Below, in pieces: positions 855-63,387 of a DNA stretch of 64,000 bases. The translations under genes and the position numbers were made by a program. How positions within the stretch are numbered: position 1 is the stretch's first letter; each line of letters opens with the position of its first letter. This DNA comes from Candidatus Levybacteria bacterium RIFCSPHIGHO2_01_FULL_37_17 (GTDB taxonomy: Bacteria > Patescibacteriota > Microgenomatia > Levybacterales > UBA12049): contig MFNL01000001.1 of NCBI GenBank assembly GCA_001782035.1, positions 148,078 to 212,077 of the forward strand. Direction: 5' to 3'. The notes under the pieces are model-generated. The model did not search any database and had not been told where the DNA came from. It saw only the letters and a program-made list of their open reading frames with translations.

Positions 855-1990
855 AGTGCAAGTAGAACTACGGCACCAATCAAAAACAGCAAGGCTCCTA
901 ATGCGCCAACTGCAATAATACTACCAGTTGGTCCGGTTGGCGGGAGGGGAGAGGGAGCGGCCTCGGTGGGGGTTGATGAAACGGTCGAAGCTTGGCCGAC
1001 AAGAATTGTCGCACTGCATCCATTATTTGTTACATTGCCATCTTCATCTGTTAATGTTGCTTTTGCAGAAAAAGTGCCGGAGGTTGCATAAGTGTGGGAA
1101 ACCAAAACAGACACTGCATCTGTTCCAACCCCTCCGGCATCGGTTACATCTTGTGTGTTTGAGTCACCAAAATCAAATGAAACCTTAGTAATTGCCGATG
1201 AGCTACTTGAGCCAACTGCCGTTAGGTTAACCGAAAAAGGAGCAGTGCCTAAAGTATTAGGATCTACCGTTAGGCTCTCGCAAATAAGCTCTCCACTTGA
1301 AAGCTGAGCACTTTCCGACGCAGAGCCCGAAGAGGTAGAAATGGGCGTAGGAGTTAAAGCAATAATTGTTGGAGTAACAGTGGGAGTCAGCGTTGGGGTT
1401 GAAGATGGAGTATCTTGAGTTACAGTTATATTTGCAGGCGCAGATGAGGAAAGCACATTTACAACATTTTGCCCAGCTGATAAAACTTGAGTTTGGTTTG
1501 CGAATATTACCTGTGTAGGGACATCCTGTTCTGTTGGCGCAATAGTATTAAAAGTTACGGTTGCGATTTTAGTTTTGGTAGAAATAAGATTTTGAGGATT
1601 AGTTCCAAGATTTATAGCAAATGAAATGGCATTGGGCGTATATTCAACTGCCTTAGCAAGGCTTGGGGTAAAAGTTGTTCCATCCGAAACAGTCCAAGAA
1701 TTTATTTTTACGCCTCCCGAGGCCGTAGCAAGCTTTGTTGAATCATAAGAGAGTATGATTTTGATGTAACTTATCGCATTTGTATTACTAGGATCTACAA
1801 AAATATCCAAGTCTGTATTTTGCCCAAGCTTAACGGAAGGACTAGTAGGAGAAAAAGAAAGAGTTGTGGCAGCAACAGCAGAGCTTTGGGTCGTCTGTTG
1901 CTGTTTTACAAGATAAACTGTTATTGGGATTGCGAGCAAAAGGACAAAAATAAACCCTGAAAGTAGCAATTTTTTGGCTGATAAGTGCAT
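851..1990 (-). CDS. Secreted Ser/Thr-rich surface protein with a PKD-like domain and a C-terminal LPPTG motif plus hydrophobic segment (putative sortase substrate)
   Basis: It has an N-terminal signal/TM helix and long S/T/P-rich linkers. A PKD-like stretch (SFDFGDS…HTYATSGTFSAKATLTDEDGN) is present. The C-terminus is PLPPTGPTG followed by a 22-aa hydrophobic stretch. Confidence 0.6.
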   Translation of the reverse strand: MHLSAKKLLLSGFIFVLLLAIPITVYLVKQQQTTQSSAVAATTLSFSPTSPSVKLGQNTDLDIFVDPSNTNAISYIKIILSYDSTKLATASGGVKINSWTVSDGTTFTPSLAKAVEYTPNAISFAINLGTNPQNLISTKTKIATVTFNTIAPTEQDVPTQVIFANQTQVLSAGQNVVNVLSSSAPANITVTQDTPSSTPTLTPTVTPTIIALTPTPISTSSGSASESAQLSSGELICESLTVDPNTLGTAPFSVNLTAVGSSSSSAITKVSFDFGDSNTQDVTDAGGVGTDAVSVLVSHTYATSGTFSAKATLTDEDGNVTNNGCSATILVGQASTVSSTPTEAAPSPLPPTGPTGSIIAVGALGALLFLIGAVVLLAL

Positions 1991-2033
1991 ATTCTAAGTG
2001 TATGGATTTAGCTTATGGGTGTCAAGAAAACGG

Positions 2034-2089
2034 TTGACAAAAAAAAACTTATGATGTATAAATAAGCAGTCGCTTTTACTGAGTGATAT
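2034..2089 (+). promoter_or_regulatory. groES-groEL promoter (TTGACA-N17-TATAAA) followed by a degenerate CIRCE-like operator (TAAGCAGTC-N9-GAGTGATAT)
   Basis: The hexamers were read directly from the sequence. The operator matches the CIRCE consensus TTAGCACTC-N9-GAGTGCTAA at 7/9 plus 7/9 positions and sits at the expected place between the -10 box and groES. Confidence 0.4.
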
Positions 2090-2103
2090 TTTTTAGGCTA
2101 AAT

Positions 2104-2400
2104 ATGGCAAAAATTAATCTAAAACCTTTATTTGATAACGTTCTGATTAAACCTCTTGAAGCGGAAGAAAAAACCGCATCCGGTATTATTTTGCCCGACA
2201 GCGCTAAGGAAAAACCACAGATGGGACTTGTTGTGGCTGCCGGACCGGGGAGAATTTTGCCAAAGGGCGAAAAAGAGGAAATGGTTGTGAAAGTAGGGCA
2301 AAAAGTTATGTATAAAAAATGGGGAGGAGACGAAGTAAAAAGCAACGGAGAAGAGTATATGATGGTAAAACAATCAGATATATTAGCAATTTTAGAATAA
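2104..2400 (+). CDS. groES: Co-chaperonin GroES (10 kDa chaperonin)
   Basis: The GroES family sequence begins at [32 protein letters not shown]. The first in-frame ATG is at 2104, whereas the ORF-track start at 2083 is not ATG-supported. Confidence 0.93.
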
Positions 2401-2401
2401 T

Positions 2402-4042
2402 ATGGCAAAAAAAATATTATACGCTCAAGAAGCGAGACAAAAATTACAAAGTGGAGTAGATCAATTGGCTAAAGCAGTAGCAACAACTCTTGGTCCAAAG
2501 GGAAGAAATGTAGCCCTCGACAAAAAATGGGGGTCTCCTAACGTTATCCACGACGGAGTAACTGTTGCAAAAGAAATAGAGCTAAAAGACCCCTTTGAGA
2601 ATATGGGAGCACAACTTGTTAAAGAAGCAGCTAGTAAAACTAATGATGTGGCTGGAGATGGAACTACTACTGCGACCGTATTAGCACAGGCAATTGTTGA
2701 CGAGGGATTAAAAAACATAACTGCAGGAGCCAATCCAATGCTTCTGAAAAAAGGACTAGAAGAAGCAAGTAGAGCAGTTGTTGATTTTATCAAAAGTAAA
2801 GCTAAAACAATTAATATAAAGAACAATGCGGAAATTTCTCAAATAGCAACTATTTCAGCAGGTGATGAAGAGATTGGTACATTGGTTGCAGAGGCTCTCC
2901 AGAAGGTAGGTGGAAAAGATGGAGTTGTTTCCGTTGAAGAAGGAAGAGGATTAACCACAGAAAAAGAATATAAAGAAGGAATGGAGTTTGATAAAGGATA
3001 TGCATCTGCTTATTTTGTAACTAACGCCGACAGGATGACCGCAGAAATTGAGGAACCATACATTCTTATTACCGATAAAAAGGTTTCAAATCTGCAGGAA
3101 TTACTTCCATTTCTTGAGAATTTAGTAAAAGTTTCTAAAAATTTGGTAATTATTGCAGACGATATAGATGGAGAAGCGTTGGCTCTTCTGGTTGTTAATA
3201 AACTTAAAGGTGCGTTTAATTCTTTGGCAGTTAAGGCCCCTGGATTTGGAGACAGAAGAAAAGAAATGCTGGAAGATATAGCAATTTTAACTGGTGCAAC
3301 AGTAATAAGCGAGGATACCGGAAGAAAATTCGATAGCGTTACAATCGAAGATTGTGGAAGAGCGGACAAGGTATGGTCGGATAAAGATAATACTAGAATT
3401 ATTGGGGGCAAAGGAAGCAAACAAGCTATAGAGGCAAGAATATCTCAAATCAGAAGAGAAATGGAAATTACTACCTCAGATTTTGATAAAGAAAAACTCC
3501 AAGAAAGATTAGCAAAATTAACAGGAGGAGTGGCAGTGATAAACGTTGGAGCTGCAACAGAAGTAGAGATGAAAGAAAAGAAAGAAAGAGTTATTGATGC
3601 AGTAGCTGCAACAAAGTCAGCGCTAGAAGAGGGAATAGTACCTGGTGGAGGGGTAATCCTTCTTGAATCAATAAAAGTCTTGGATCCCAAACTTCTCAAA
3701 CATATCCCAGGTGATAGCGATCAGGCTACGGGTGTAAATATTTTAAGGAAAGCTTTGGAATTTCCAACTAGAAAGCTTGCTGAAAATGCAGGCGTAAATG
3801 GAGATGTTGTAATAGATAACATAAACAAAAATGAAGCTGGGTTTGGGTATGATGTATTGACTGGTTCTTATGTTAATATGATAGAGCGTGGAATTATTGA
3901 TCCAGCTAAAGTAACTAGGTCTGCCGTTGAAAATGCCGTATCTGTAGCCAGTATGATTCTTACGACAGAGAGTTTAATTACAGATGAGCCTGAAGAAAAG
4001 AAAGAAACCCCCGGAATGCCGCCCGGTGGCATGGACTACTAA
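2402..4042 (+). CDS. groEL: Chaperonin GroEL (60 kDa)
   Basis: The full-length GroEL signature is present ([36 protein letters not shown]), and the C-terminus is a GGM-like [10 protein letters not shown]. Confidence 0.97.
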
Positions 4043-4068
4043 ACCCCTCATAAGTTATAATAGTTTGC

Positions 4069-4908
4069 GTGAGAAAGATTCTATTTGTTTTTGGCTGTAT
4101 CCTTCTTGCCCTCCTTATTTTCTTTATCCTGGTATTCGTTGTAAATAAAAGACCTGAAAAAGGCGCTCTTCAGGTAACATCTTCTCCGGCATCAGAAGTT
4201 TACTTAAATGACAAACATATAGGAAAAACTCCGCTTTGTCTTTGCCAGGGAAATAATATGGTGGATGTTGGGGATTATACAATTAAATTAGTACCAACAA
4301 GCGGAGACTTTGAACCATTCCAGAATAAAATAACTGTCACACAAAAAATATTAACGGTCGTGGATAGAAGTTTTGCTCAAACAGCCTTAGCTCAAGCATC
4401 AATAATTACTCTTAAAGAAATAGAAGATAAAAAACAAGCACAGATTAGTATTGTTACTTTTCCATCGGGGGCTGATGCTTATCTTGATAATAATTTAGTC
4501 GGACACGCACCAATCTTACTTAAAAATGTAACAGAATCAGACCATGAAATAAAAGTTTCTAAATCCGGATATAAGGAAAAAAGTATAAGAGTAAGAGCAC
4601 TTTTAGGATATAGGCTTGATTCTATAATTTATTTGGGAGTAGACCCAAATGCCGCTGAGGAAAGTGAGCAAGAGGCAACTCCATCCGCATCTCTTACCAC
4701 CGGACAAAAATTAATAATTCAAGATACGCCAACGGGATTTCTACGAGTTAGAGAAACGCCATCTACAAGCGCAAATGAAGTTGGGAGAGTAAATCCGGGA
4801 GAAGAATATGAATTACTTGATGAGCAAAACGGTTGGTACCAAATAAAATTAAAAGACGGAAAGACAACAGGTTGGGTAAGCGGGCAATATGCTAAAAAGC
4901 AGGGCTAG
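4069..4908 (+). CDS. Membrane-anchored protein with two PEGA-like domains and a C-terminal bacterial SH3 (SH3b) domain
   Basis: The gene begins with a GTG start and an N-terminal TM helix. PEGA-like repeats are present (SSPASEVYLNDKHIGKTPL; SGADAYLDNNLVGHAPILL). An SH3b-like C-terminus follows (GFLRVRETPS…GWYQIKLKDGKTTGWVSGQY). Confidence 0.6.
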   Translation: MRKILFVFGCILLALLIFFILVFVVNKRPEKGALQVTSSPASEVYLNDKHIGKTPLCLCQGNNMVDVGDYTIKLVPTSGDFEPFQNKITVTQKILTVVDRSFAQTALAQASIITLKEIEDKKQAQISIVTFPSGADAYLDNNLVGHAPILLKNVTESDHEIKVSKSGYKEKSIRVRALLGYRLDSIIYLGVDPNAAEESEQEATPSASLTTGQKLIIQDTPTGFLRVRETPSTSANEVGRVNPGEEYELLDEQNGWYQIKLKDGKTTGWVSGQYAKKQG

Positions 4909-5848
4909 GTCCAACGAAATAAATTATAAGAATAACAAGCAATACCCAGATTATTACATCTAATAAAAGTGGAATATCCGAAAGCAAAACCCTTTCCGGA
5001 GACTCGCCTTCGTTCTTTTCATAGATATCCTGTAAATATCTCATAAGTCCATAGACAACCGGAATAATAGTTATCATTAGCCATTTCCTTTCTATAAAAG
5101 AGGAAAAAGTGTCCGGCAATAAAATATTCAAGTTTAATCTGAATCCTCCCGGATTTTCCAAAAAAGTAAAAAGCGAATAAGCAACAAAGGTAGATGTCGC
5201 AAAAATAGATGCATAAACGTCGAGCAGCCTATCGGAATAGTGAGAAAGTGATTTTCTTGTCGCAGCAATGTTTGTACCTTTAGTTCCAGAAAGGAGTGTA
5301 AGCTCGGACCTTCTTTTTCCAACCGCAAGAAATAGAGAAATAGATATTGTTGTAAGAAGAAGCCATACTGATATATGGTATCCGCTTGCAAATTCTCCGC
5401 CATAGACCCGCAATATATAACCCGATGCAATAGCCAAAATATCTAAAACTGCGATAGACTTAATAAAGGATGAATATAAAAACTGAATAACTAAATATAA
5501 AAGACAGACTGCAAAAAAAGTTGGTGCAATAAACTTTGCTAAAAGGAGAGATCCTGCAATTAAAAAAATTGCAAAACTAAATCCGAATGAAAGTGGAATT
5601 TCCCCGCTAGCCAAGGGTCTAAATTTTTTAAAAGGATGAAGTTTATCTTTTTTTACATCAAAAATATCATTTATAATATAGGTGGCGCTCGAAAGTCCGC
5701 AAAAGGCTACAAATGCTAGTATTACATTCCACAAAACGGGCGTGTTAAACAATTCCCCGGCGAAAGTAATTGCAGCAAAAAGAGCAAAATTTTTAATCCA
5801 CTGTCTTGGACGAAGCAGCCTTAAAATGTTATAAAGAACTTTTATCAT
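4892..5848 (-). CDS. UbiA-family prenyltransferase, decaprenyl-phosphate phosphoribosyltransferase-like
   Basis: It is a polytopic membrane protein with LRPRQWIKN and NDIFDVKKD (the NDxxDxxxD motif typical of UbiA / DPPR synthase-like enzymes). Confidence 0.75.
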   Translation of the reverse strand: MIKVLYNILRLLRPRQWIKNFALFAAITFAGELFNTPVLWNVILAFVAFCGLSSATYIINDIFDVKKDKLHPFKKFRPLASGEIPLSFGFSFAIFLIAGSLLLAKFIAPTFFAVCLLYLVIQFLYSSFIKSIAVLDILAIASGYILRVYGGEFASGYHISVWLLLTTISISLFLAVGKRRSELTLLSGTKGTNIAATRKSLSHYSDRLLDVYASIFATSTFVAYSLFTFLENPGGFRLNLNILLPDTFSSFIERKWLMITIIPVVYGLMRYLQDIYEKNEGESPERVLLSDIPLLLDVIIWVLLVILIIYFVGPSPAF

Positions 5849-6905
5849 CGAACCGTTTTATCAGAATATGCAAAAATAGAATTGCGCCAAAAGCAATTAT
5901 TACTAGCATTATTATAGCAAAAAGTTTTCCCTTACTTGATAGTACTAAAGCTAAACTTCCCAAGGCCGCAGAAACAATCCAGTAAAATAGAGCTACTCTT
6001 TTTTGTCCCATACCTAAGCTTAAAAGCAAATGGTGCAAATGTTTTTTATCATGCCAAAAAGGGGATCTACCAGATAAGACTCTTCGTATAATCGTAAACA
6101 AACCGTCTGTCATAGGAATTCCCATTACCAAAATTGCAGTTGCTAGTTTTGCGCTGGACAGTATTGACGCAACAGCTAAAAGCAGATATATAGCTGTTGC
6201 TCCATAGCCTGGAAAAATTTTTGCTGGGTAATAGTTATAAATTAAAAACCCAAGTGATGCGCCGGCGATTATAAAAGACAAAGTTGCTGCAGTTAAACTA
6301 GTTTGATCCAATACAGAAAACCTCAAACTTAAAATTCCAATCACTACAGCTGATATAGCTACAATTCCCGGCATTTGTCCATCAACGCCCTTGCTCCAAT
6401 TTAACATGTTCATTACCCAGACAATCCATAATACCGCGATTATGGCGGAGACAGAAGAGAATGGGAAAGGTAAAAATGGTATCGTTATTTGATTTAAGAA
6501 TAAAATTCCGCCAAAAGGATTAGTTATAAAAGAAACGCTTGCCCCGCTATAGACCACAATTATTGCGGAGAATATATTTACCAAAAACCGACTATAGGGA
6601 GAAATGTCATATTTATCATCAATTACACCAACAATCAGTGAAATAAATGCTGCAAAAAAGATAGACGCTATAAGATTTGTAAAAGGAATGAAAATAAGAC
6701 TTGCTAAAAACACTCCTATAAACAGAGGTATTCCACCGCCTCGGGGTATTGGTTTTTCATGTATAATTGCAGGGTGTTTGTGAACTCTTGGATCATCCAT
6801 GACTTTATATTTCCCCAAGAAAAATAAAGATATAGGTACAGCTACCGCCGTAATAATTAGAGATGCAAGCAGTGGGAGTATGATTACAAAATTAAAATTA
6901 AACAT
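5829..6905 (-). CDS. Glycosyltransferase family 4, MraY/WecA-like polyprenyl-phosphate sugar-1-phosphate transferase
   Basis: It has about ten TM helices. It carries a DDxxD-like VGVIDDKYD, an NMLNWSKGVDGQMPG (NxxNxxDGxDGL-like) motif and a cytoplasmic PRGGGIP. Confidence 0.8.
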   Translation of the reverse strand: MFNFNFVIILPLLASLIITAVAVPISLFFLGKYKVMDDPRVHKHPAIIHEKPIPRGGGIPLFIGVFLASLIFIPFTNLIASIFFAAFISLIVGVIDDKYDISPYSRFLVNIFSAIIVVYSGASVSFITNPFGGILFLNQITIPFLPFPFSSVSAIIAVLWIVWVMNMLNWSKGVDGQMPGIVAISAVVIGILSLRFSVLDQTSLTAATLSFIIAGASLGFLIYNYYPAKIFPGYGATAIYLLLAVASILSSAKLATAILVMGIPMTDGLFTIIRRVLSGRSPFWHDKKHLHHLLLSLGMGQKRVALFYWIVSAALGSLALVLSSKGKLFAIIMLVIIAFGAILFLHILIKRFDDKSSL

Positions 6906-7258
6906 TAAATTAGAAGCAAAAGCTTAACAATTAAAAGTAAATTCATAACTGCAATGGTCAAGGTTATAGAAGCTACAATTCTTGCAAGAAGAGGATTATT
7001 TTTAACGTAAAGAAATGACGCAAAGCTGAAATTTAATATAAACACTATCATAAATAGAGCACTTGGAATAAAGATGCCGGGTGTTTCAGAAAGACGAGAG
7101 TCTCCCCAAGGCATCTGATTGAAAATGGGAACATAGGGAGGTAGATTTACGTAATTTATTAAAATCAGAATTATCGTAAATACACCAACAAGAAGTGAGG
7201 ATAAAAATATATTAAAAGTTATTCCATCGCGCCTTACGCTTTTAATGAATTCTTTCAT
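6905..7258 (-). CDS. Small integral membrane protein, hypothetical
   Basis: It has three predicted TM helices and overlaps the stop codon of the upstream gene by 1 nt inside the glycan operon. Confidence 0.4.
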   Translation of the reverse strand: MKEFIKSVRRDGITFNIFLSSLLVGVFTIILILINYVNLPPYVPIFNQMPWGDSRLSETPGIFIPSALFMIVFILNFSFASFLYVKNNPLLARIVASITLTIAVMNLLLIVKLLLLI

Positions 7259-8752
7259 TTATATTTTTTCAGTGACCTTATATTCCAATCTTTTCCCTAA
7301 CATCAGCTGGGTATGGGAAATAAGAGCAGGCAAGGCTGAAAGAAAAAAACCGACAAATGGAAGAAGTAGAAATTCAAACGGAAAAAAAACAAGTCGTTTC
7401 TTTGAGGCTCTGTGATGTTTTTCCCTTGTTCGGTAATCAATTATAAACATAACAGCCGTTGTGATAACAGTGAGGGTCAGAATAAACCCTGCTATCTTTG
7501 GTAGGTTATATCCTAAAGCGGTCCTAGTAAAAACGGGATTAATAAATGGCATAACATTTGCTGCAATGGTTATAATAAACCAGTTGACTGGCCAAAGAGT
7601 ATGATCCACTAAAACATTTATTAACATGACAGTCTTTTTGAAAAAAGGAACATTTGGAACGGTAAGCCACCATTTTATAAAAAGTGGATCATCCGATGCA
7701 CCCCAGCTCCAGCGTCTCTCTTGATGATATTTATTTTTTAAAGATCCAATATAAGAAGAGGAAAGGGGAGCATCCATTGAGGTTTTCAAAAATATTGGTT
7801 GAACACTTACTTTACCCTGTTTTTTATAAAAGGCTTTAAAGAAAATTCTGTAATCTTCGGGAATTACATCAGTATCCCAAAAGCCTATTTCTCGCAATAG
7901 TTTTAAAGATAAAGAATAAGTAGAATTTGAAATTAATCTATCTTTTTGGACAAGCAAAGCCATTCTCCATAAGCTTCCAAAAAAGGTAATAATTCTTGTG
8001 GGAGCTGGAACTTTCCAAAAATTATTGTAATAAACGTTGGCCGATTGGTAAAATTTATTATGTCTCTCACTATCTCTTAAAAATTCGAAAGAAAGATAAG
8101 AGAAGTACTGTCTGTCAAAAATAGAGTCTGCGTCAACTGAGGAAATGGTTGTAAAATTTTCATCGACTACTTTATCAGTAACCAATTTTTTATAGGCGAT
8201 TTTTGCAGCATAGGATTCATTGCTTGATTTGCCTTTTACTTCACCCACGATGTCGGGATGGAAAGTAGCAGAAATAGATCCGAATTTTCCTTCGAATTCT
8301 GCAATTAAAGATTTTGCTTTTATTTTTGCGCCAGACTCTCTTTTTTCCATTGCTAAAACTACATGGAGACGTTCTGTTGGAAAAGTTTGATTAAATAAGC
8401 TTTCTATACCTGGTTTTATCTTGTCGGCAGATTCCGTGTAGTTTGGAATTATAACGATGTGTGACATTTTTTCAAAATTTTCTAGCGGCTTTGCGATAAA
8501 TAGCCAGTCTTTTTTCTCAGCCTCTTTTATTTTTCTTGAAGCAATAAACGCAGTCGCAGCCAGCGTAAATGATTTATAAAACCAATAAACGTCAAAGAAA
8601 AGAATAAAGTAAGCAACAACCAAGGGAATGAAAAAGCTTCCCCAGACAGGAAATAAAATAAGAAACCAAGCTAAGGTACCAGGCATCATCTCCAGCGCCC
8701 TATGTGTCTTAACCGGATAGGTTCTAAAAATTCTGTCAAAAAAATTTGTCAT
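7259..8752 (-). CDS. Processive family-2 glycosyltransferase (cellulose-synthase-like) membrane protein
   Basis: The D, DxD (SVDADSIF) and QxxRW (QERRWSWGA) motifs lie between N- and C-terminal TM bundles. Confidence 0.75.
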   Translation of the reverse strand: MTNFFDRIFRTYPVKTHRALEMMPGTLAWFLILFPVWGSFFIPLVVAYFILFFDVYWFYKSFTLAATAFIASRKIKEAEKKDWLFIAKPLENFEKMSHIVIIPNYTESADKIKPGIESLFNQTFPTERLHVVLAMEKRESGAKIKAKSLIAEFEGKFGSISATFHPDIVGEVKGKSSNESYAAKIAYKKLVTDKVVDENFTTISSVDADSIFDRQYFSYLSFEFLRDSERHNKFYQSANVYYNNFWKVPAPTRIITFFGSLWRMALLVQKDRLISNSTYSLSLKLLREIGFWDTDVIPEDYRIFFKAFYKKQGKVSVQPIFLKTSMDAPLSSSYIGSLKNKYHQERRWSWGASDDPLFIKWWLTVPNVPFFKKTVMLINVLVDHTLWPVNWFIITIAANVMPFINPVFTRTALGYNLPKIAGFILTLTVITTAVMFIIDYRTREKHHRASKKRLVFFPFEFLLLPFVGFFLSALPALISHTQLMLGKRLEYKVTEKI

Positions 8753-9543
8753 AGATTAAAAACATTACCCGCATTTTTAGTTGTAACTCTGTCAATCTCA
8801 CTAAAAGAAACACCTTTAAGTTGGGCTATGTATTTAGCTGTTATTATAACATAGCTAGGCTCATTCCTACTACCTCTGTGGGGAATTGGAGAAAGAAAAG
8901 GCGCATCTGTTTCTACGACTAATTTATTAAGTGGAGTTCTTTTTAATAGTTCGAAAAGGGCAATAACTTCTCCTTTGGCAATTCCTTCGTATGTTATATT
9001 TCCATCGAAACCGATATAAAATCCCAGATCCAAAACTTCTTTCAAAACTTGAAAATCCGATGCAAAACAATGAAACATTCCCGGAATATTTCTTAATGAA
9101 TTTTTGTATTTTTTTAGACTCTTAACAACATCTTTACCTGCTTGTCTATTATGTATTTGGAGTGGTACATTTTTATTTATTGCAATTTTAATTTGTGTTT
9201 CAAAAACCTCCTTCTGTAAGTTTGAATCTACAATTCCGTTAGATGCATAACTGTAATAATCAAGGCCTATTTCCCCGATTGCTAAAACTTTTGGTTGTTC
9301 CAATAATTTTTCAATTTGCCTCTCCCAACCCTTGCTTAATTTGTCGGCATGATGCGGATGAATTCCGACAATTGCATAAAGCTCCTCATATTTTTGGGCT
9401 AGTTCAACGGCTTTTTTACTTGATTCCAAAGAGGTGCCGACATTTATTATTTTTTTAACGCCACTTTTTTTTGCTCTTTCCAAGACCTCCTCTAAATCGT
9501 TTTCAAAAGCCTTGAAATTTAAATGGCAATGGACATCTATCAT
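8749..9543 (-). CDS. tatD: TatD-family metal-dependent hydrolase/DNase
   Basis: The N-terminal IDVHCHL signature and the TatD fold length of 264 aa are present. Confidence 0.85.
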   Translation of the reverse strand: MIDVHCHLNFKAFENDLEEVLERAKKSGVKKIINVGTSLESSKKAVELAQKYEELYAIVGIHPHHADKLSKGWERQIEKLLEQPKVLAIGEIGLDYYSYASNGIVDSNLQKEVFETQIKIAINKNVPLQIHNRQAGKDVVKSLKKYKNSLRNIPGMFHCFASDFQVLKEVLDLGFYIGFDGNITYEGIAKGEVIALFELLKRTPLNKLVVETDAPFLSPIPHRGSRNEPSYVIITAKYIAQLKGVSFSEIDRVTTKNAGNVFNL

Positions 9544-32679: not shown

Positions 32680-32809
32680 TTAGGAAATTATAGCAGAATT
32701 TGGAATTTTAACCTATAGTTTGCAAATTGAGGAAGATTGTAGTATAGTTTAATAATAAGTAGCTCTGGCTTAACTTGTAGAAGCTATATAAAGTACTTAT
32801 AATAAATAC

Positions 32810-38463: not shown

Positions 38464-39189
38464 TCATATTTTATTGAGCCTTGCTTTTACTATCAGCCTT
38501 TTCCAAATTGTGCCGGGCGGAGTGCATGTAATTAATGTTAAAAAACTGTCGCTATAATTTTGCTCTAAAACAGATGTATCTGTTGGCTCAACTACGGTTA
38601 TTGACTCAACCTTATATTTATAAGTAATACTCCCAACCTTAACAATCAAATCATCTCCGGCCTGCAACTTAAACAGATATGAAAAAATTGTTTTATAGTC
38701 CTTTTCATTATAAAGCTGGGGAAGAGTAGAATGCCCGAAAATAACCGCGTTTCCTTTCTCAGGCGGCAGAGCTGTGCCACCATAATTAACTAAGTGTCGG
38801 GTCAAATCGGTATCATTTGCACTTACTACCGCGTCTTTTATATTTATTTTTGGTATGGAAATGTTATAGAGCGGAGTTTTTAAATTTTCGGCTCTCTGGT
38901 TATATCCCGGAAACCAATTTTGTGCATCCGTGTAATTTATCCCGGACAAAGACTCAGACGCGCCGCTTATTAATGATGCTAGCGTATTTCCCGAAACAAT
39001 ATTAACTTTGGGAATTGGTGCATTTATTTCCTGGTTTGCAAATACGGGAGCAAAATATATTTGCCAGGAAATTAACGGAAAAAACGAATATAGAAGTATC
39101 GAAATTCCAAGAGTTAGTACTACAAAACTTAAAAGCTTTAAAACTCTTTTTTTATTCTTAGGGTCTTTTTTTTTGTAATATTTAACCAT
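38464..39189 (-). CDS. Sortase (transpeptidase), TLxTC family
   Basis: It has an N-terminal TM anchor, the catalytic His in VIFGHSTLP, the catalytic Cys in LTLITCTPPG (TLxTC), and a downstream Arg (RLIVKAR). Confidence 0.85.
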   Translation of the reverse strand: MVKYYKKKDPKNKKRVLKLLSFVVLTLGISILLYSFFPLISWQIYFAPVFANQEINAPIPKVNIVSGNTLASLISGASESLSGINYTDAQNWFPGYNQRAENLKTPLYNISIPKINIKDAVVSANDTDLTRHLVNYGGTALPPEKGNAVIFGHSTLPQLYNEKDYKTIFSYLFKLQAGDDLIVKVGSITYKYKVESITVVEPTDTSVLEQNYSDSFLTLITCTPPGTIWKRLIVKARLNKI

Positions 39190-41445
39190 TTAATTGCTGT
39201 TAACATTTATAATTATGTTGGCAGGATTTTTTGGTAAAGCTGAAGACAAAAAGGGAATTGGCGGAAAAACAGATATTTCAACGCTTTTCACTTTATCTAA
39301 ATTACTTAAAAGATTTTTTGCTTTTCCAACGTCCATTCCTTTTATGTCTTCAGCAAGAGACTTGGTATCAATTTTAGCAACAGCCTTAATTTCAATCGTA
39401 AGATCTGCAGAAACATCCCTGTTGCGCGCAACGGTTAAGTCTTTAACATTTGTTTTAATACTGCTTTTCATAATTTCTGTTTCTGAATCATTAAAAAGAT
39501 TTTGAACAAAATTTATCATGTCGGAGTTTGAATATGCGATATAGTTAAACGCAACGGCGCCAGTCAATATAAGCTTATTTGATTCATCTCCTTCCTTTTT
39601 ATCGAATTTCTCGCTTAAGAGCTCGGTGTCTATAAACTGAGGTAAAATTGTCATTCCACTTTCAACTTTCTTGCTTAAATCTTGCTCTGCTTTAGTTGTC
39701 AGTTTTTTAGGAAGCTCTGCTCTTGCATTTGCAAAATCTTCTTTTGAAACAACCAGTACATTTTTCTTACTACCTCCTGAGAAAGCGTTGTCATTTTTAG
39801 CGCCAATTGATTTATTTGAACCAATTGTAAATTTAGTATCAGATGGTAAGTTATATTCCGTTCCAATGTCCTCTGCCGTAACATTCGCATTAGTAGTTCC
39901 CGGTTTTGTACCGGAAAAAACATCCCCCGACGCAGAAGCTACAGAAACTCCACTATCTAACAAAAAGTCTAATTCATTTGAAGAGGTTATTATAGTACCC
40001 TTAGCAAGACTAACAGGATCTGTATCGTTGTTGAAAATAGTAACCGTTCCTTTTGCTTTCTCTCCTACATCTTTTTTGCCTTTTACGTCCACCGTTACGG
40101 ATCCTTCCTCTTCAATAGGAACTATTTTTGCTTCTAGTAATTTATCATCGAGGTTGGTAGTTGAGTTAGGAGAAAAAGTTAAGCTTTCGTCTTTTGTTAG
40201 AGTTTGCAAATCAATAGCAAGCTTTACAGTCGCCTTAGTTTGGAATATAAAAACAAAATAAAAAAATATAAAAAGAGCTATTATTCCTAAGCCAATAAAC
40301 AACAATTTTTTATCTTTTATCCCTCCGTTTCTTAAAGATGAAAGTGCTTCTTTAGATAACAAATTTTGAAAAAGGGAAAGTGCAGATTTTGCTTTTTCAA
40401 CCAGTAAAACACCCAGGGTACCGATATTCAGTTTTTTTTCTGTTTTTATTTTTACATCTTCGGGTATTTCTTCACTGACTTCTTTTAAAGCTTCATCATG
40501 CAGGGCACTTTTTTCACTTACTTTGTCCTGTTGTACATCTTTTGCAACGTCGCTTTTACTAAAGCCGAAAAAATCCATAGACCCTTCTTTTCCGACATAA
40601 TCTAAATTTTGTCCTTCTATTCCTTTTTCTTCCGAAACATTCTCGAAACTCTTATTTTGCTCTACTCTTTCTACATCCGATGCATCAAACTCTAATTTTG
40701 CCCCCATTTGTGTAGCTGCCCCAAGTAAAACCGCCTTTATATCGGAATTTGTTGGCAGCATTTGAATTTGAGGAATGTGTAGAAAATTTAAGCTTTTACT
40801 CCACTGATGGTTTATAAATTCCTGAGTTAACTCATCCTCGTCGGAGTTAATTAAGATAATTCTTGCAGGCATAACAGCAGGAGTCTCCAAGTGCTTTAAT
40901 AAAGTCTCAACTGTAAAAGAAGCGCCTTGATGAATTTCGCTTGTTTTTGCTTCCATGACTCTACCGCTTTTTATGTAGTAAGCGGTCAAGTATTTTTTCC
41001 CAACTTCAGCAATTATTGCAGTTACGGGCGCTCCTTCTTCTTTCTGCAGCAAATTTGTTAGGCTCTCGCTAAAAGTTAAAAAACCAATTGGCTCAAGTCC
41101 CAGTTCATCTCCGGCTTTTTTTAGCTTATCCAAATATTCCTTTTTAATTTTTTCATTCTCTATCCAGTTATCCTTAAGAGCAAGAATTGTTTTATATTTA
41201 TCAACCGTACTAGTAAGCGGGATTTCGGCTCCGGAAATAGCTTTATCCAAAACACTCAAAAATTCCTCAAGCGAAGCATTCTCGATGGTGCTTGTAAATT
41301 CTTCTTCGTTTGCGCTTACGTACTTTAGCGTATGTGTGGTTTTCTCAAAAATTACGGCTTTTGCTTTCTCGTTTCTTAAAATAAGAGAAAGATAAAATTC
41401 TTTTTCCTCTTTTTTCCAAAGGTTTGGCAGGCTTGATATTTTCAT
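39190..41445 (-). CDS. Large bitopic membrane protein (~360-aa cytoplasmic N-domain, one TM helix, ~370-aa extracytoplasmic domain), function unknown
   Basis: A single strong TM helix (LLFIGLGIIALFIFFYFVFIF) lies mid-protein. There is a weak resemblance to an actin-like (FtsA/PilM) fold in the N-domain. The gene is in an operon with the sortase and alaS. Confidence 0.5.
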   Translation of the reverse strand: MKISSLPNLWKKEEKEFYLSLILRNEKAKAVIFEKTTHTLKYVSANEEEFTSTIENASLEEFLSVLDKAISGAEIPLTSTVDKYKTILALKDNWIENEKIKKEYLDKLKKAGDELGLEPIGFLTFSESLTNLLQKEEGAPVTAIIAEVGKKYLTAYYIKSGRVMEAKTSEIHQGASFTVETLLKHLETPAVMPARIILINSDEDELTQEFINHQWSKSLNFLHIPQIQMLPTNSDIKAVLLGAATQMGAKLEFDASDVERVEQNKSFENVSEEKGIEGQNLDYVGKEGSMDFFGFSKSDVAKDVQQDKVSEKSALHDEALKEVSEEIPEDVKIKTEKKLNIGTLGVLLVEKAKSALSLFQNLLSKEALSSLRNGGIKDKKLLFIGLGIIALFIFFYFVFIFQTKATVKLAIDLQTLTKDESLTFSPNSTTNLDDKLLEAKIVPIEEEGSVTVDVKGKKDVGEKAKGTVTIFNNDTDPVSLAKGTIITSSNELDFLLDSGVSVASASGDVFSGTKPGTTNANVTAEDIGTEYNLPSDTKFTIGSNKSIGAKNDNAFSGGSKKNVLVVSKEDFANARAELPKKLTTKAEQDLSKKVESGMTILPQFIDTELLSEKFDKKEGDESNKLILTGAVAFNYIAYSNSDMINFVQNLFNDSETEIMKSSIKTNVKDLTVARNRDVSADLTIEIKAVAKIDTKSLAEDIKGMDVGKAKNLLSNLDKVKSVEISVFPPIPFLSSALPKNPANIIINVNSN

Positions 41446-41446
41446 G

Positions 41447-43243
41447 TTAAGTGACTTTGGCGTAAATTCTTTTTTGTCCTTTTCCTAAATTTTCCTGTTT
41501 TATTATTGTAAAACTATTTAGCTTGCCAGTAAAGTCAACATGGGGACCTCCGCAGAATTCGGCCGAGTACGGCCGTGGTGAGCCAGTCGAACCACCACCT
41601 ATAAAATAAACCTTAACTTCTCCTTCGTACTTATCGTCAAACAGTCCGATTGCCCCAATTTCTTTGGCTTTTTGCAAGGGCAGCATTTCAAAAGAAATAG
41701 GTAAGTTTTCTAAAATTTTATCGTTGACTATGTCTTGTACTCTTTTTAACTCGTCTATAGTTAACATTCTATCCAAATTAAAATCAAAGCGTACCCGCTC
41801 GCTTGTAATATTGCTTCCTGTCTGGTGAAGCTCATTACCAAAAACATCTCTTAGCGCTTGGTGCAAAAGGTGGGTTGCGGTATGCCCCTTAATTGTAAGT
41901 TCACTGTGATCTGCCAATCCTCCTTTAAACATTCCACTTGATGCGGTTTTGGATTTTTTGCTGTGCTCCTCCATTAAACCTGCAAACTTTTGCTCATCAA
42001 ATATATATCCGAGGCTTTTTATTTGTGTAGGAGATAGGCCGTGGGTTGAGTACATTTTAAAAGCTTCATCTGCTGAAATTTGCTTAGTCCCATTATCATC
42101 CGCGCCACCGATTATTTTCTCCGCAACATTTATAACATTTTTATAGTTTTCCTGTTCTTGTAAAATTACATTTTTAATTTCTTCAAAGTTTTGGCTTAAG
42201 CTTTTATCTGTTTTGGCACACTCTGCAACAATTGCACTTATTATATTTTCAACATCTGCTTGTCCTGAGCTTGCCGAATGGGCATGTCCTAAGTTATCCA
42301 AAGCGCGCCTTATTAATCTTCTTAAAATATATCCGCGTTCTTTGTTAGAAGGCACAACTTTTCCATCTATTAAATAAACGGCTGCTCGCAAATGGTCGGC
42401 AACAATTCTCATAGAATTTTCATTACCTTTATACTGCTTGCCCGATTCTCTCTCAATCGCTTTTATAATTGGCTCAAACAAGGAAGTTTTAAAAATATCG
42501 CTTTTGTCCTCAACTGCTGCGAGTAACCTTTCCAATCCTCCTCCAAAATCTACATTTTTTTGCGGTAATTCTTTAAAAACGTCCTCAGTTTTTTGGTACT
42601 GAATAAAAACGCTGTTTGCGATTTCCAAAAACTTTCCGCATTCGCAAGTAACCGGGTCTTTTCCTTTGCAGCCCTTGAAATGAGGATTATCAAATTCATA
42701 ATAGACCTCTGTATCAGGGCCGCCAATCTCTCCTACAGGCATATTTGCAGGAACGCCACTTCTGCTCCACCAGTTTTTATCTACTCCTGCCCAAAAAATA
42801 CGCTCTTTTGGCACAATCTTTGACCAAATCTCAAATGATTCATTATCCTTCTCAACTCCTTCTGTCCCTTCAAAAATCGTAATATACAGCCTCTCACTAG
42901 GAATTTTTAATTCCTCGGTGAGAAACTCCCAAAGCCATGGTATTTCTTCTTTTTTAAAGTAGTCTCCCAAGCTCCAGTTTCCAAGCATTCTAAAAAAAGT
43001 TGTATGTCTATTGTCTCCGACTTCATCTATATCAACTGCCCTAAAGCTATTTTGAACATTAACCAGCCTTTTGCCTGCAGGATGGACCTCGCCCAAAAGA
43101 TAGGGGATTAAAGGCTGCATGCCGGAGGATGTAAAAAGGGTAGTTGGGTCATCTATTGGAACAAGAGGGGAATTTGTAATTCTCTTATGCCCTTTCCCCT
43201 CAAAGAATTTTATATATTTTTCGATTATATCTTTCCCAGTCAT
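41447..43243 (-). CDS. alaS: Alanyl-tRNA synthetase (short form: catalytic, tRNA-binding and editing domains, no C-Ala domain)
   Basis: The N-terminal class II motifs (FTSSGMQPLIPY; FFRMLGNWSLGDYFK) and the editing HxxxH/CxxxH region (HTATHLLHQAL … FCGGPHV) are present. The length is 598 aa. Confidence 0.9.
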   Translation of the reverse strand: MTGKDIIEKYIKFFEGKGHKRITNSPLVPIDDPTTLFTSSGMQPLIPYLLGEVHPAGKRLVNVQNSFRAVDIDEVGDNRHTTFFRMLGNWSLGDYFKKEEIPWLWEFLTEELKIPSERLYITIFEGTEGVEKDNESFEIWSKIVPKERIFWAGVDKNWWSRSGVPANMPVGEIGGPDTEVYYEFDNPHFKGCKGKDPVTCECGKFLEIANSVFIQYQKTEDVFKELPQKNVDFGGGLERLLAAVEDKSDIFKTSLFEPIIKAIERESGKQYKGNENSMRIVADHLRAAVYLIDGKVVPSNKERGYILRRLIRRALDNLGHAHSASSGQADVENIISAIVAECAKTDKSLSQNFEEIKNVILQEQENYKNVINVAEKIIGGADDNGTKQISADEAFKMYSTHGLSPTQIKSLGYIFDEQKFAGLMEEHSKKSKTASSGMFKGGLADHSELTIKGHTATHLLHQALRDVFGNELHQTGSNITSERVRFDFNLDRMLTIDELKRVQDIVNDKILENLPISFEMLPLQKAKEIGAIGLFDDKYEGEVKVYFIGGGSTGSPRPYSAEFCGGPHVDFTGKLNSFTIIKQENLGKGQKRIYAKVT

Positions 43244-43428: not shown

Positions 43429-43477
43429 AGTGGTAAATGATTATTCTCCCGCTCAAATTTGATCTTAGTCCCATAGT

Positions 43478-43506
43478 TTGATATTTTACCCCTTTTTTAG
43501 TATAAT
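43478..43506 (+). promoter_or_regulatory. Promoter TTGATA-N17-TATAAT placed 8 nt before the ATG of the 911-aa gene (leaderless-type)
   Basis: Read directly from the sequence. Confidence 0.55.
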
Positions 43507-43514
43507 TCTCCCTT

Positions 43515-46250
43515 ATGACACTTGAAAGATTTGAACGTAGAGCGCGGCCTAAGCCAAGCCACATCCGTGGTTTAAATTCATTATTTGAGTTTAACAAGAC
43601 TAGACAAGGGTTAAATTTGGATCAGGGCGTTTTCGAAGGCAAAAATAAAGTCAGACCAATTGTTAGAGGGCAAATACAAGAAGTAGATTCAAATCCTTCC
43701 AAAACTCTTAAATCAAATCCTGTATATAGATGGATAAGAAGAGACGCTTCGCAATTTGAAGCTATAGCTTTAAGGGATCAGGACGTTAAAAAGGGTCTTG
43801 CAACTATTGATGATTTAGTCGATAGACTTTCTAATAATACCTTGGAAGAGGAAGAAAAAAGACTAAATACACTGGCTGTAGCAGAAAAAACAGAGGAGGT
43901 AGCAATTCTTGCCGCTCCATATGTACCCCGCTCCCAAAAGAAAAATCCTGAGAGTCAAGACGATGAAAACGGTGAGTCTTCAAATAAACAAAAGCGAGAA
44001 AAAGAAAAAGCTCCTAAGCCAAAGAGTAAAGGAAGTAGCGTAAGCTTAAGCTTAGACTTAAAACTTCCAAGAATTCCTCAACTCGATAAATTATTTGAAT
44101 CACTTTCAAAGTTTTTCGCCGGCTTTAAAAACAGACTTAGAACATCAAACAATGGGGACCTTTTGCATCCTCTATTAACTAGATTTCAGGAAGCTGGAAG
44201 AGAAAGAAAATGGAAATTACTACCTAACAGCATTGAACTAATGAGAACTAATAAAGAACTAATGAGAAACTTAACTCCCGCTGGCTTTATCATTACAAAA
44301 ATTATGAATAAATATGACGAGAATACAGGTGAGTTAACAGTTGATGCCCCAAGACAAGTGGACATTCCATTGGGATACGATAGTAGATATGAAATTGGAA
44401 CTCCTCTTGGAAGAGTAGATCCGGCAAAGGTTGAGGTTATTGGAATACCTATTCCTACTGATGGTAATTATAGAGCTGTTGGAGCAAGAGGATTTAAATA
44501 TAATTTATCAGAAGTAGCCCTTGTTACAGAAAAAAATAAAGAGATAGTTGGCCAACGTCAAATTGAAATTTACGTAGAAAAAGACGAACTAGGAAACCTG
44601 GTTATAAACTTAAAAGGCATGCCAAAAGATTTGCAGGATGAAATAAAGAAGGCAAATATAGTTTTGAAGACCAAATACACTGAGTCATACCGCTATGGAC
44701 ACTCCATAGAACAAGCTAACTGGATAGATGCGCTGCCTGAAAACGAAAGGTACAGACTAAATATGTATCCCCCTGAAATTGCTAAATTCGTGACAACTCT
44801 TCTTGAGAAAAAGAAAAATAAAATTCGTGGCTTTATGGACAACGATGAAATATTTGCAAGATTAGCTCAATTTCTTGGAGACTATTGGTTAACATATGAT
44901 CTTTTGGACGCAAGAATAAACGAAAACGAACCCATTGGCTTTAGGCAAACAGAAAGAGTTTTAAACGGCAACCTAGCATCTTGCGAAGGTTCAAATATAG
45001 CACTTGGACAACTGATGAGATACTTCTTAGAAGAAGATGAAGGTATTGCTTATGTGGAAGGATTTGTAGCAGAAGGTTCCTCTATTACATCCAGAAACTT
45101 ACACTTAAAAGTACTGTATAAAGATCAGGTTGGAGGAAAACACCTTTTTGATGCAACTCCTTGGGCGGAAGAGGATCATGTTATGTTTAATGTTCTTTCT
45201 AGAAGAAGGAAATTAGCTGCGCAAGAATGGTATTCAAAGAGTCGAAGACTGCGAGAAGGAGAATTATTAAAACTAAGAGATGAATTGCCAAACAGAATCG
45301 GAAAAGTTTCAGAACGAATAAGAACTTCTTGGCAGGATACATCAGATTTGCCCCGGACTTTAACGCAAAGGATGCAAAGAGAACATCTGTATCTAAGCTC
45401 TATGAACGCAGATCAACCCGATGAAAATCAATTAATTGCAGAAACTATAGTCTGGCGAAAAAGATGGTTTAAGAGTGACTATCATACGATTCCAAAAGAG
45501 CTAGGCTACTTTTTTAGAGAACAATATAATGTAGAGCGCTATGGACAACTATGGAGATTTCCACATGGTGTTATCGATGGAAAAATCGATTTCGACATAA
45601 AATTTTTAAAAGGTAAGTTTTATTCTGAGTCTAATGAGACTTCCTTTAACTTATTTAAATATCTTGATCAAACCGCAACCCACCCTATACTTAGCGACTT
45701 AGAGCGGCAACAAAGAATTTTTAGACTTATGACCAATGTGAGTGAACAGGCTTTAATTGCATCCAATCAAAATGTAGAAACGCTTAATTTGGTGGCACAG
45801 CAGGTTGAAAATTTATCTGCATACTACCGGGAAAGATTTATTAAAATTTTTGAAAGCGTTCGTGGATCGCTAAATGTTGAGCCACAAACTTTTTTTGACT
45901 CATTCCCTTTCTTGCTTTTACTGGGAAATCCATACAATAGCTTACAAGATTTATTAACTAGATCACTTGATCCAGACACCCTAGGCTTTCTTGTTACATC
46001 AGATGGTAAGAGTCTTAAAGAAAATATTGATAGGAAACTTTACTCGTGGAAACATATTGCAGAAATGAGGTTAGAGCATTATCAAGACTCAATTAAAAGA
46101 GTCCCAAAAACAACAGGCAGAGAAAGGGTAGTTGTATCGAGTACTTACTTATGGGAAAAATTAATTTCAGAATCTCCAATTATAAAGAAGAGGGATAAAA
46201 AATATTTGGAACCTGAGGAAACTTTTTTTCACCTTCTCCAAGCAGATTAA
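43515..46250 (+). CDS. Large hypothetical cytoplasmic protein (911 aa) with a possible central transglutaminase-like Cys-His-Asp core
   Basis: The ORF is long and uninterrupted. It contains a candidate triad (LASCEGSNIALGQLMRYF … NLHLKVLY … GGKHLFDATPW) resembling the TGase-like GxCxxFA…HAWxEVY…FDPT pattern. It has a low-complexity K/E-rich N-terminal region and no TM segment. Confidence 0.55.
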   Translation: MTLERFERRARPKPSHIRGLNSLFEFNKTRQGLNLDQGVFEGKNKVRPIVRGQIQEVDSNPSKTLKSNPVYRWIRRDASQFEAIALRDQDVKKGLATIDDLVDRLSNNTLEEEEKRLNTLAVAEKTEEVAILAAPYVPRSQKKNPESQDDENGESSNKQKREKEKAPKPKSKGSSVSLSLDLKLPRIPQLDKLFESLSKFFAGFKNRLRTSNNGDLLHPLLTRFQEAGRERKWKLLPNSIELMRTNKELMRNLTPAGFIITKIMNKYDENTGELTVDAPRQVDIPLGYDSRYEIGTPLGRVDPAKVEVIGIPIPTDGNYRAVGARGFKYNLSEVALVTEKNKEIVGQRQIEIYVEKDELGNLVINLKGMPKDLQDEIKKANIVLKTKYTESYRYGHSIEQANWIDALPENERYRLNMYPPEIAKFVTTLLEKKKNKIRGFMDNDEIFARLAQFLGDYWLTYDLLDARINENEPIGFRQTERVLNGNLASCEGSNIALGQLMRYFLEEDEGIAYVEGFVAEGSSITSRNLHLKVLYKDQVGGKHLFDATPWAEEDHVMFNVLSRRRKLAAQEWYSKSRRLREGELLKLRDELPNRIGKVSERIRTSWQDTSDLPRTLTQRMQREHLYLSSMNADQPDENQLIAETIVWRKRWFKSDYHTIPKELGYFFREQYNVERYGQLWRFPHGVIDGKIDFDIKFLKGKFYSESNETSFNLFKYLDQTATHPILSDLERQQRIFRLMTNVSEQALIASNQNVETLNLVAQQVENLSAYYRERFIKIFESVRGSLNVEPQTFFDSFPFLLLLGNPYNSLQDLLTRSLDPDTLGFLVTSDGKSLKENIDRKLYSWKHIAEMRLEHYQDSIKRVPKTTGRERVVVSSTYLWEKLISESPIIKKRDKKYLEPEETFFHLLQAD

Positions 46251-63347: not shown

Positions 63348-63358
63348 GAGTCCTATAG

Positions 63359-63387
63359 TTGACAACTCTAACCAATTCTGGTAGAAT
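63359..63387 (+). promoter_or_regulatory. Promoter TTGACA-N17-TAGAAT, 9 nt upstream of ORF 63397
   Basis: Read directly from the sequence. Confidence 0.5.

Follow-up and report, generated by a model that had tools for sequence, protein, structure and literature searches.

TgpA (PA2873) of Pseudomonas aeruginosa is a membrane-anchored protein with a periplasmic catalytic domain, and this domain showed transglutaminase activity in vitro (PMC3507681). In the papain-like core the catalytic cysteine sits at the N-terminus of an alpha-helix, and the strands of an antiparallel sheet that follows supply the histidine and a polar third residue (PMC10318531). In the Candidate Phyla Radiation, a role of the conserved family CPR-C4 as cysteine protease had been predicted on the basis of distant structural resemblance to human vasohibins, and CPR-C4 proved to be an active protease that binds Zn2+ (PMC9108980). 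Here a gene is described that lies in a stretch of 64,000 nucleotides (nt) from Candidatus Levybacteria bacterium RIFCSPHIGHO2_01_FULL_37_17 (contig MFNL01000001.1, positions 148,078 to 212,077), hereafter called the window. A first-pass annotation made from the letters alone had placed a protein of 911 amino acids (aa) with a candidate Cys-His-Asp catalytic core at 43515-46250 (+). There is only one long open reading frame (ORF) at this position, and it extends from ATG to TAA as annotated:

43515..46250 (+): coding sequence of the 911-aa protein, ATG to TAA, stop included

The predicted structure makes it quite likely that the product is a soluble, cytoplasmic, multi-domain enzyme with a TgpA-like two-lobe module (residues ~215-560) and Cys-His-Asp acyl-enzyme chemistry. 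The full-length protein was modelled with AlphaFold2 (AF2) from an 18-sequence alignment, with a mean predicted local distance difference test score (pLDDT) of 79.6 and a predicted template modelling score (pTM) of 0.65. An independent AF2 run with residues 215-562 gave a pLDDT of 86.4, a pTM of 0.88 and the same secondary structure. When both models were compared by Foldseek with 350,542 PDB chains, the only matches at E<=0.001 were to the periplasmic domain of P. aeruginosa TgpA (6g49/6g4h), with template modelling scores given for the target (TMt) or the query (TMq):

Full length against 6g49: E 8e-6, probability 1.00, TMt 0.58, 351 aligned columns
Module 215-562 against 6g4h: E 6e-8, probability 1.00, TMq 0.51 and TMt 0.61, 353 aligned columns

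In the module search both lobes were aligned, covering essentially the whole 348-residue query and the whole TgpA target of 278-288 residues. A weaker tier of matches contained the transglutaminase 4xz7 of S. suis (E 0.025, probability 0.82), LapG (4u65/4fgp, probability ~0.5) and 3kd4, intermixed with unrelated matches. The structure search that had been recommended together with the original annotation thus recovered a transglutaminase-like (papain-type) fold, that of TgpA 6g4h/6g49, at E values from 6e-8 to 8e-6.

In the model, helices at 409-458 precede the catalytic core, which consists of a helix at 478-485, a helix at 490-501 and strands at 510-518, 529-536 and 542-545. C490 is the N-terminal residue of helix 490-501, H530 lies on the second strand that follows and D546 just after the third, with pLDDT values from 83 to 94 in the full-length model and from 87 to 97 in the model of the module alone. 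This predicted arrangement agrees with the definition of the papain-like/transglutaminase-like core given in PMC10318531. The residues proposed for catalysis are encoded as follows:

44982..44984 (+): codon TGC of C490, the proposed nucleophile, sole cysteine of the protein and first residue of helix 490-501
45102..45104 (+): codon CAC of H530, the proposed general base, the only invariant histidine, on strand 529-536
45150..45152 (+): codon GAT of D546, the proposed third triad residue, in an invariant D-A-T directly after strand 542-545

The three ordered motifs named in the first-pass annotation are present, namely LASCEGSNIALGQLMRYF at residues 487-504, NLHLKVLY at 528-535 and GGKHLFDATPW at 540-550; from the start of the first motif to that of the second the distance is 41 residues and not about 48, as had been stated. 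C490 and H530 are separated by 40 residues and H530 and D546 by 16, a spacing that falls between those of the PDB chains 3isr (34/15) and TgpA 6g49 (44/16).

The protein had been described as one for which no relative was recognised. This has to be corrected, since five relatives were found by a word-indexed search of 5.8 billion proteins, and an exhaustive hidden Markov model (HMM) search of 1.84 billion cluster representatives yielded 24 matches to the family profile. About 16 of these 24 are full-length or nearly so (700-990 aa), and the others are fragments together with one 1414-aa repeat protein (P0022), which was dropped as spurious because it gave 22 matches to one stretch of 26 residues. 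The 911-aa protein can be aligned over its whole length with homologs of 900-990 aa. C490 is unchanged in 17 of the 17 sequences that cover it, and no homolog that covers C490, H530 and D546-A-T deviates at these positions (16-17 sequences, 20-46% identical). The candidate cysteine, on whose conservation the first-pass annotation had made its proposal depend, is therefore invariant, together with the histidine and the aspartate. Residues Y461, D465, Q478, R481, E491 and G492 are likewise unchanged in the 18-sequence alignment wherever they are covered. Among 13 full-length members there are 31 invariant positions, 13 of them within residues 461-548, and H530 is the only invariant histidine. 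Compared with the window protein, the homologs are on average 58% identical at residues 478-550 and 53% at 409-550, against 16-29% elsewhere. These comparisons showed that the core is the best-conserved segment of a real, conserved and very rare protein family.

At the level of the fold, the models thus argue for a new, divergent and soluble family of the transglutaminase-like superfamily, and its members are probably active cysteine amidases or transamidases. The earlier proposal of a novel cysteine-dependent enzyme gains support from the TgpA match and from the invariant triad, that is, at the level of fold and conservation; no support was found for the term "effector" that had been used along with it.

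The family is sparsely labelled. The few source labels read "hypothetical protein", "Patescibacteria group bacterium", "Candidatus Woesebacteria" and, in one case, a metagenome-assembled genome labelled Gammaproteobacteria; where an organism is given, it is mostly Patescibacteria or Woesebacteria. The hits lie on low-GC contigs, and the GC content of six homolog loci is 33-42%. The locus with the deviating label (L003, contig CAZWXQ010000005.1, "uncultured Gammaproteobacteria bacterium") has a GC content of 34.7%, and Pfam was silent on 7 of the 11 neighbouring ORFs scanned. The family may reach beyond Patescibacteria, or this bin may be mislabelled. Public assemblies contain the identical protein on 15 contigs; the three places listed belong to three different samples, and one of these three records carries the label ANAN16-1, which we take to refer to the Rifle aquifer groundwater study.

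The two-lobe module is embedded in a larger protein with the following parts:

43566..43922 (+): N-terminal helical domain, residues 18-136, AF2 pLDDT ~90, family-specific
43950..44132 (+): K/S/E-rich low-complexity linker, residues 146-206, pLDDT <50, predicted disordered
44184..44714 (+): beta-rich lobe, residues 224-400, N-terminal half of the TgpA-like two-lobe module, AF2 strands 224-390
44739..45164 (+): helical sub-domain and transglutaminase-like catalytic core, residues 409-550, best-conserved part
45168..46247 (+): C-terminal, mostly helical domain, residues 552-911, AF2 pLDDT mostly 80-97 except for a loop at 702-722

W73 and A121 are invariant in the N-terminal helical domain, for which no significant PDB fold match was found; the TgpA match maps to the central module. 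The linker (K11 S10 L7 E6 in 61 residues) differs in length among homologs and has a mean identity to them of 16%. A K/E-rich disordered N-region had been noted before, and such a region is real, although it is an internal linker that follows the folded domain 18-136 and not the N-terminus itself. The invariant residues of the beta-rich lobe are G228, R231, P312, D357, G360 and N361. The C-terminal domain contains long helices at 552-604, 729-780 and 831-862 as well as the invariant residues W572, W606, Q752, N753, P798, P806 and W845; it is family-specific and gave no significant fold match in the PDB or in the viral fold collection BFVD. The helical C-region of roughly 350 aa that had been recognised from the sequence corresponds to these ~360 mostly helical C-terminal residues of the AF2 model. 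The highest Kyte-Doolittle value over 19 residues is 0.81 and the N-terminus is charged. None of the 18 family sequences has a membrane segment or a signal-like N-terminus, and the same maximum stays below 1.5 in all of them. The description of the protein as soluble and leaderless thus holds for the window protein and for its family.

The start of the gene is marked by a promoter-like sequence:

43478..43506 (+): sigma-70-like promoter TTGATA-17-TATAAT, identical to the consensus at 11 of 12 positions, the region's best match

Its -10 box ends 8 nt before the ATG of the 911-aa gene, and a Shine-Dalgarno sequence is absent. At four other loci (L001, L002, L004 and L008) the ATG of the ortholog is likewise preceded by TATAAT at a distance of 6-8 nt and by no Shine-Dalgarno sequence, and the proteins of these loci are only 28-46% identical to the window protein. 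Over the whole region, the counts of promoter consensus matches were not above chance. The sites at which TATAAT abuts the ATG are located at 43478-43514 in the window, ~7960-8000 in L001, ~7585-7624 in L002, ~7900-7937 in L004 and ~6905-6943 in L008. As judged from the DNA, this layout implies a conserved, presumably leaderless or near-leaderless mRNA and suggests that the 911-aa gene is transcribed independently. Because the promoter abuts the ATG, the start codon is fixed, and hence there is no leader peptide. The -35 box is fused through its TTG to CCTATAG, and the resulting motif CYATAGTTK occurs seven times in the window (43471-43479, 32713-32721 and 63353-63361 on the forward strand; 12279, 38055, 45442 and 45546 on the reverse strand), with 2.2 occurrences expected and 1 of 100 shuffles reaching seven. 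At least three copies stand immediately ahead of -35/-10 pairs that lie upstream of genes, as in CCTATAGTTGACA-17-TAGAAT, the -10 box of which ends 9 nt before the ATG at 63387. CYATAGTTK looks like an extended promoter element typical of the lineage and not particular to the 911-aa gene.

Gene neighbourhoods were compared at seven loci (the window, L001-L004, L008 and L009). The homolog of L004 is accompanied by ruvC and Nramp, and that of L009 lies between dnaN and dnaA, near replication-origin genes. L002 has a DUF2207 gene upstream and RND efflux genes further downstream, L003 has MacAB-type efflux genes, and unrelated genes were found in L001 and L008. The efflux genes of L002 (10932-15716) encode a membrane-fusion protein and an RND efflux pump on the same strand, ~0.5 kb downstream of the homolog beyond a 44-aa ORF, and those of L003 (10876-13794) a membrane-fusion protein and a MacAB-like ABC efflux system on the same strand, 56 nt downstream. 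Since they are missing from the window and from the other loci, the presence of efflux genes beside the homolog in two of the seven loci is probably a coincidence. In L009 (1925-15979) an unannotated 380-aa gene ends 4 nt before the homolog, and a type IV secretion-like cluster (TraG-like ATPase, TraC-like, PrgI-like) follows 2.5 kb further on. A part of the window block 5829-9543 is repeated in L002 at 437-5590 and comprises a 358-aa GT4 glycosyltransferase gene, an ORF of 117/118 aa and a gene of 497 aa with a TatD-like gene (264 aa) behind it; in L002 an additional PMT-family gene (483 aa) stands between the small ORF and the gene of 497 aa. This block adjoins the ortholog in L002 but lies 34 kb from the 911-aa gene in the window, so that the position of the gene has been reshuffled between related genomes. 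The TgpA gene presumably belongs to an operon with MoxR- and DUF58-type genes, and no match of either type was present among the neighbouring genes scanned at the seven loci.

These observations bear on where the protein acts. That it works outside the cytoplasm on the envelope, in cell-wall or surface-polymer maturation as proposed for TgpA, and gets there by non-classical export or by release on lysis, is unlikely. This explanation would fit the closest structure, the periplasmic domain of an envelope protein for which a cell-wall-linked role has been proposed (PMC3507681), and the membrane-fusion and efflux genes just downstream of two homologs. The window and four of the six other loci, however, lack these efflux neighbours, in five loci a promoter next to the start codon fixes its position, and there is no signal peptide or membrane segment in any of the 18 sequences.

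For the soluble, cytoplasmic enzyme with a TgpA-like module, a mechanism can be proposed from the fold class. The gene would be transcribed on its own from the promoter that abuts its start codon. The N-terminal helical domain and the C-terminal helical domain of ~360 residues might confer substrate choice or control access to the active site. The thiolate of C490, activated by H530, which in turn would be oriented by D546, would then attack an amide carbonyl of a protein or peptide (the side-chain amide of Gln or Asn, an isopeptide bond or a peptide bond) and yield a thioester acyl-enzyme. Characterised prokaryotic members of the superfamily are mostly hydrolases, namely proteases, isopeptidases, deamidases and amidases. 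Since the 911-aa protein also appears to be cytoplasmic, hydrolysis of protein or peptide amides is favoured over cross-linking. By analogy, resolution of the intermediate by water, with a protease, isopeptidase or deamidase outcome, is judged the likelier course, if by a modest preference, and resolution by an amine, that is transamidation or cross-linking, a clearly less probable though realistic one. A more specific and rather unlikely version is that the family is a lineage-restricted, cytoplasmic counterpart of the TgpA module that forms or removes isopeptide (Gln-Lys type) links on intracellular proteins of ultra-small bacteria. If true, this would mean cross-linking or de-linking (tagging or de-tagging) of proteins in the bacterial cytoplasm, directed by two helical domains without a significant PDB match.

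A small-molecule acyl- or acetyltransferase would be cytoplasmic too, and arylamine N-acetyltransferases have the same catalytic triad and fold class (PMC10318531). It is nevertheless distinctly unlikely that the 911-aa protein acts in this way and not on proteins: neither list of the 50 best PDB matches contained an N-acetyltransferase structure, the two-lobe module matches TgpA specifically, and the large flanking domains might point to macromolecular substrates. Very unlikely is also a catalytically inert scaffold or binding protein that has merely kept the fold, like Rad4/XPC or erythrocyte band 4.2. The inactive superfamily members that are known (PMC10318531) have lost triad residues, whereas all three are invariant in this family, C490 is the sole cysteine and the core is the most conserved segment; the activity of the 911-aa protein is, for its part, a prediction.

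Several results weigh against the assignment to the transglutaminase-like fold and against its functional interpretation. The AF2 models were built from a shallow alignment (16-18 sequences), and the root-mean-square deviation from TgpA is 8 Å, from which it follows that the lobes are oriented differently. The residues flanking the cysteine, S-C-E-G-S/A-N, differ from the canonical G-x-C-x-x-F/Y-A. No neighbour is common to the seven loci, and the neighbourhoods therefore give no pointer to a substrate or pathway. In sequence-based searches, five members gave no match to PF01841 in Pfam at E<=10, NCBIfam contained no relevant match (RepC noise only, E 0.036), and phmmer and hmmsearch comparisons with PDB sequences, with full-length and core profiles, gave chance matches only (E >0.6). 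An HMM of PF01841-type cores scored ~0-2 bits on the family, and an hhalign comparison of the family with the PF01841 core alignment gave P=0.0038 with a probability of only 8.8%. The Pfam matches to Pallilysin, ATP11 and EcoEI_R_C were rejected as sub-threshold noise. The core alignment used here had 67 sequences, 66 of them from 120 retrieved PF01841-annotated proteins and one from the 6g49 core. The transglutaminase-like PDB cores 3isr, TgpA 6g49 and PNGase 2f4m had been retrieved with a consensus core as the bait, which is not evidence in itself; a MAFFT alignment of these three cores was discarded because the His region was misaligned.

The hhalign alignment was nevertheless in register, pairing AYVEGF with RYVSGY, the histidine with the catalytic histidine and FDAT with FDAT/DPT of the PF01841 cores, and only with a relaxed threshold was the whole core collinear and cysteine paired with cysteine. 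This in-register alignment is suggestive and not significant on its own, and hhalign comparisons with single PDB cores were too weak. Judged by its sequence, the 911-aa protein is outside Pfam PF01841 by the HMM criterion of that family. A coincidental likeness of motifs, with the AF2/Foldseek match an artefact of the shallow alignment and the true fold and function unrelated, would agree with sequence-profile tests that were all negative or marginal and with an alignment of only 16-18 sequences, and it is highly improbable in view of two independent, concordant AF2 runs of high confidence, of TgpA as the top match in both searches with probability 1.00 among 350,542 chains, of other transglutaminase-like folds recurring among the weak matches and of invariant residues that sit exactly at the catalytic positions.

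The window has the look of the core chromosome of a small-genome, low-GC bacterium, with lepA, groEL, hrcA-dnaK-dnaJ, clpB, nusA-infB, pnp and an RNase J gene. The 911-aa gene is divergent from alaS (598 aa, 41447-43243, -), and on its 3' side it is followed by small ORFs, a PEBP-family gene and then rpoB. One of the small downstream ORFs gave a weak, sub-threshold match to an ArsR-type helix-turn-helix (Pfam HTH_5). The GC content of the 911-aa gene is 0.363 compared with 0.371 for the window, there are no tRNAs, the 911-aa protein has no homologs in phage or plasmid collections, the PADLOC defence-system models gave no match, and the BFVD viral fold search gave no match to the 911-aa protein. 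A genomic island or mobile cargo was considered and rejected because of the ordinary GC content, the core flanks and the lack of tRNAs, phage or plasmid homologs and PADLOC matches. The word "island" in the first-pass annotation is therefore unsupported for a gene flanked by alaS and by the PEBP-family gene and rpoB, with a GC content of 0.363 against 0.371 and no tRNAs.

Two neighbours on the reverse strand deserve mention in their own right. The alanyl-tRNA synthetase (AlaRS, 41447-43243, -) stops with its second additional domain (tRNA_SAD at residues 543-594). Typical bacterial AlaRS is longer than 598 aa and has a C-terminal domain, and the 598-aa AlaRS appears from its sequence to lack this usual domain. 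Next to it, a 751-aa ORF (38464-41445, -) matched only a Baseplate_J-like model, below threshold (E 2e-4; 21.0 bits where the cutoff is 21.1); it abuts a sortase gene and lies directly upstream of it. Its product may be a surface protein and sortase substrate.

The 911-aa family would add to the transglutaminase/papain-like superfamily an unannotated family that is undetectable by sequence, and would place the two-lobe TgpA module in a soluble setting, free of the membrane. No current view is overturned by it. The chemistry of the TgpA module could be easier to study in a soluble relative that has a single cysteine, and the family is a small, well-defined target for the study of lineage-specific proteins of the Candidate Phyla Radiation and might yield a new protease or transamidase.

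Among the described systems, LapG and the other bacterial transglutaminase-like cysteine proteinases (MEROPS C93; 4fgo, 4fgp and 4u65) gave weak matches to the core (probability 0.1-0.5, TMt 0.2-0.4) that were not significant (E 0.2-3), and the 911-aa protein was not assigned to LapG/C93. LapG, which has been solved in calcium-bound and EGTA-treated forms according to the PDB titles, is a small (~180 aa) periplasmic protease and differs from the 911-aa protein in size, location and architecture. The "transglutaminase-like putative cysteine proteases" (PF01841, 3isr) are collinear with it: a W..Y segment is followed by a helix, x-C-x at a helix start, a hydrophobic strand that ends in G-F/Y, a histidine on the next strand and F-D-A/P-T. 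Proteases of the 3isr type, in contrast, have G-V-C-R-D-F-A at the active site where the 911-aa protein has S-C-E-G, and 3isr was not among the Foldseek matches listed. CPR-C4 gave no PDB sequence match at E<=10, nor did it appear in the lists of the 50 best fold matches. It sets a precedent for deriving a function from structure rather than from sequence, but it is a different family with a Cys-His-Leu(carbonyl) triad instead of Cys-His-Asp.

The closest system is TgpA (6g49/6g4h, PF01841 core), a protein critical for the viability of P. aeruginosa. It shares the whole two-lobe module over ~350 aligned columns and the order of the triad residues, with a spacing of 44/16 compared with 40/16 in the 911-aa protein, and the identity over the structural alignment is only 10-11%. 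TgpA has a multi-pass membrane anchor and a periplasmic catalytic domain, whereas the 911-aa family has neither a membrane segment nor a signal peptide, and the N- and C-terminal helical domains of this family are unrelated to TgpA. Because of the missing membrane anchor and the different flanking domains, the 911-aa protein is not a TgpA-family protein. What is new would thus be a sequence family and a soluble architecture around a known catalytic module, which a specialist would find plausible rather than surprising.

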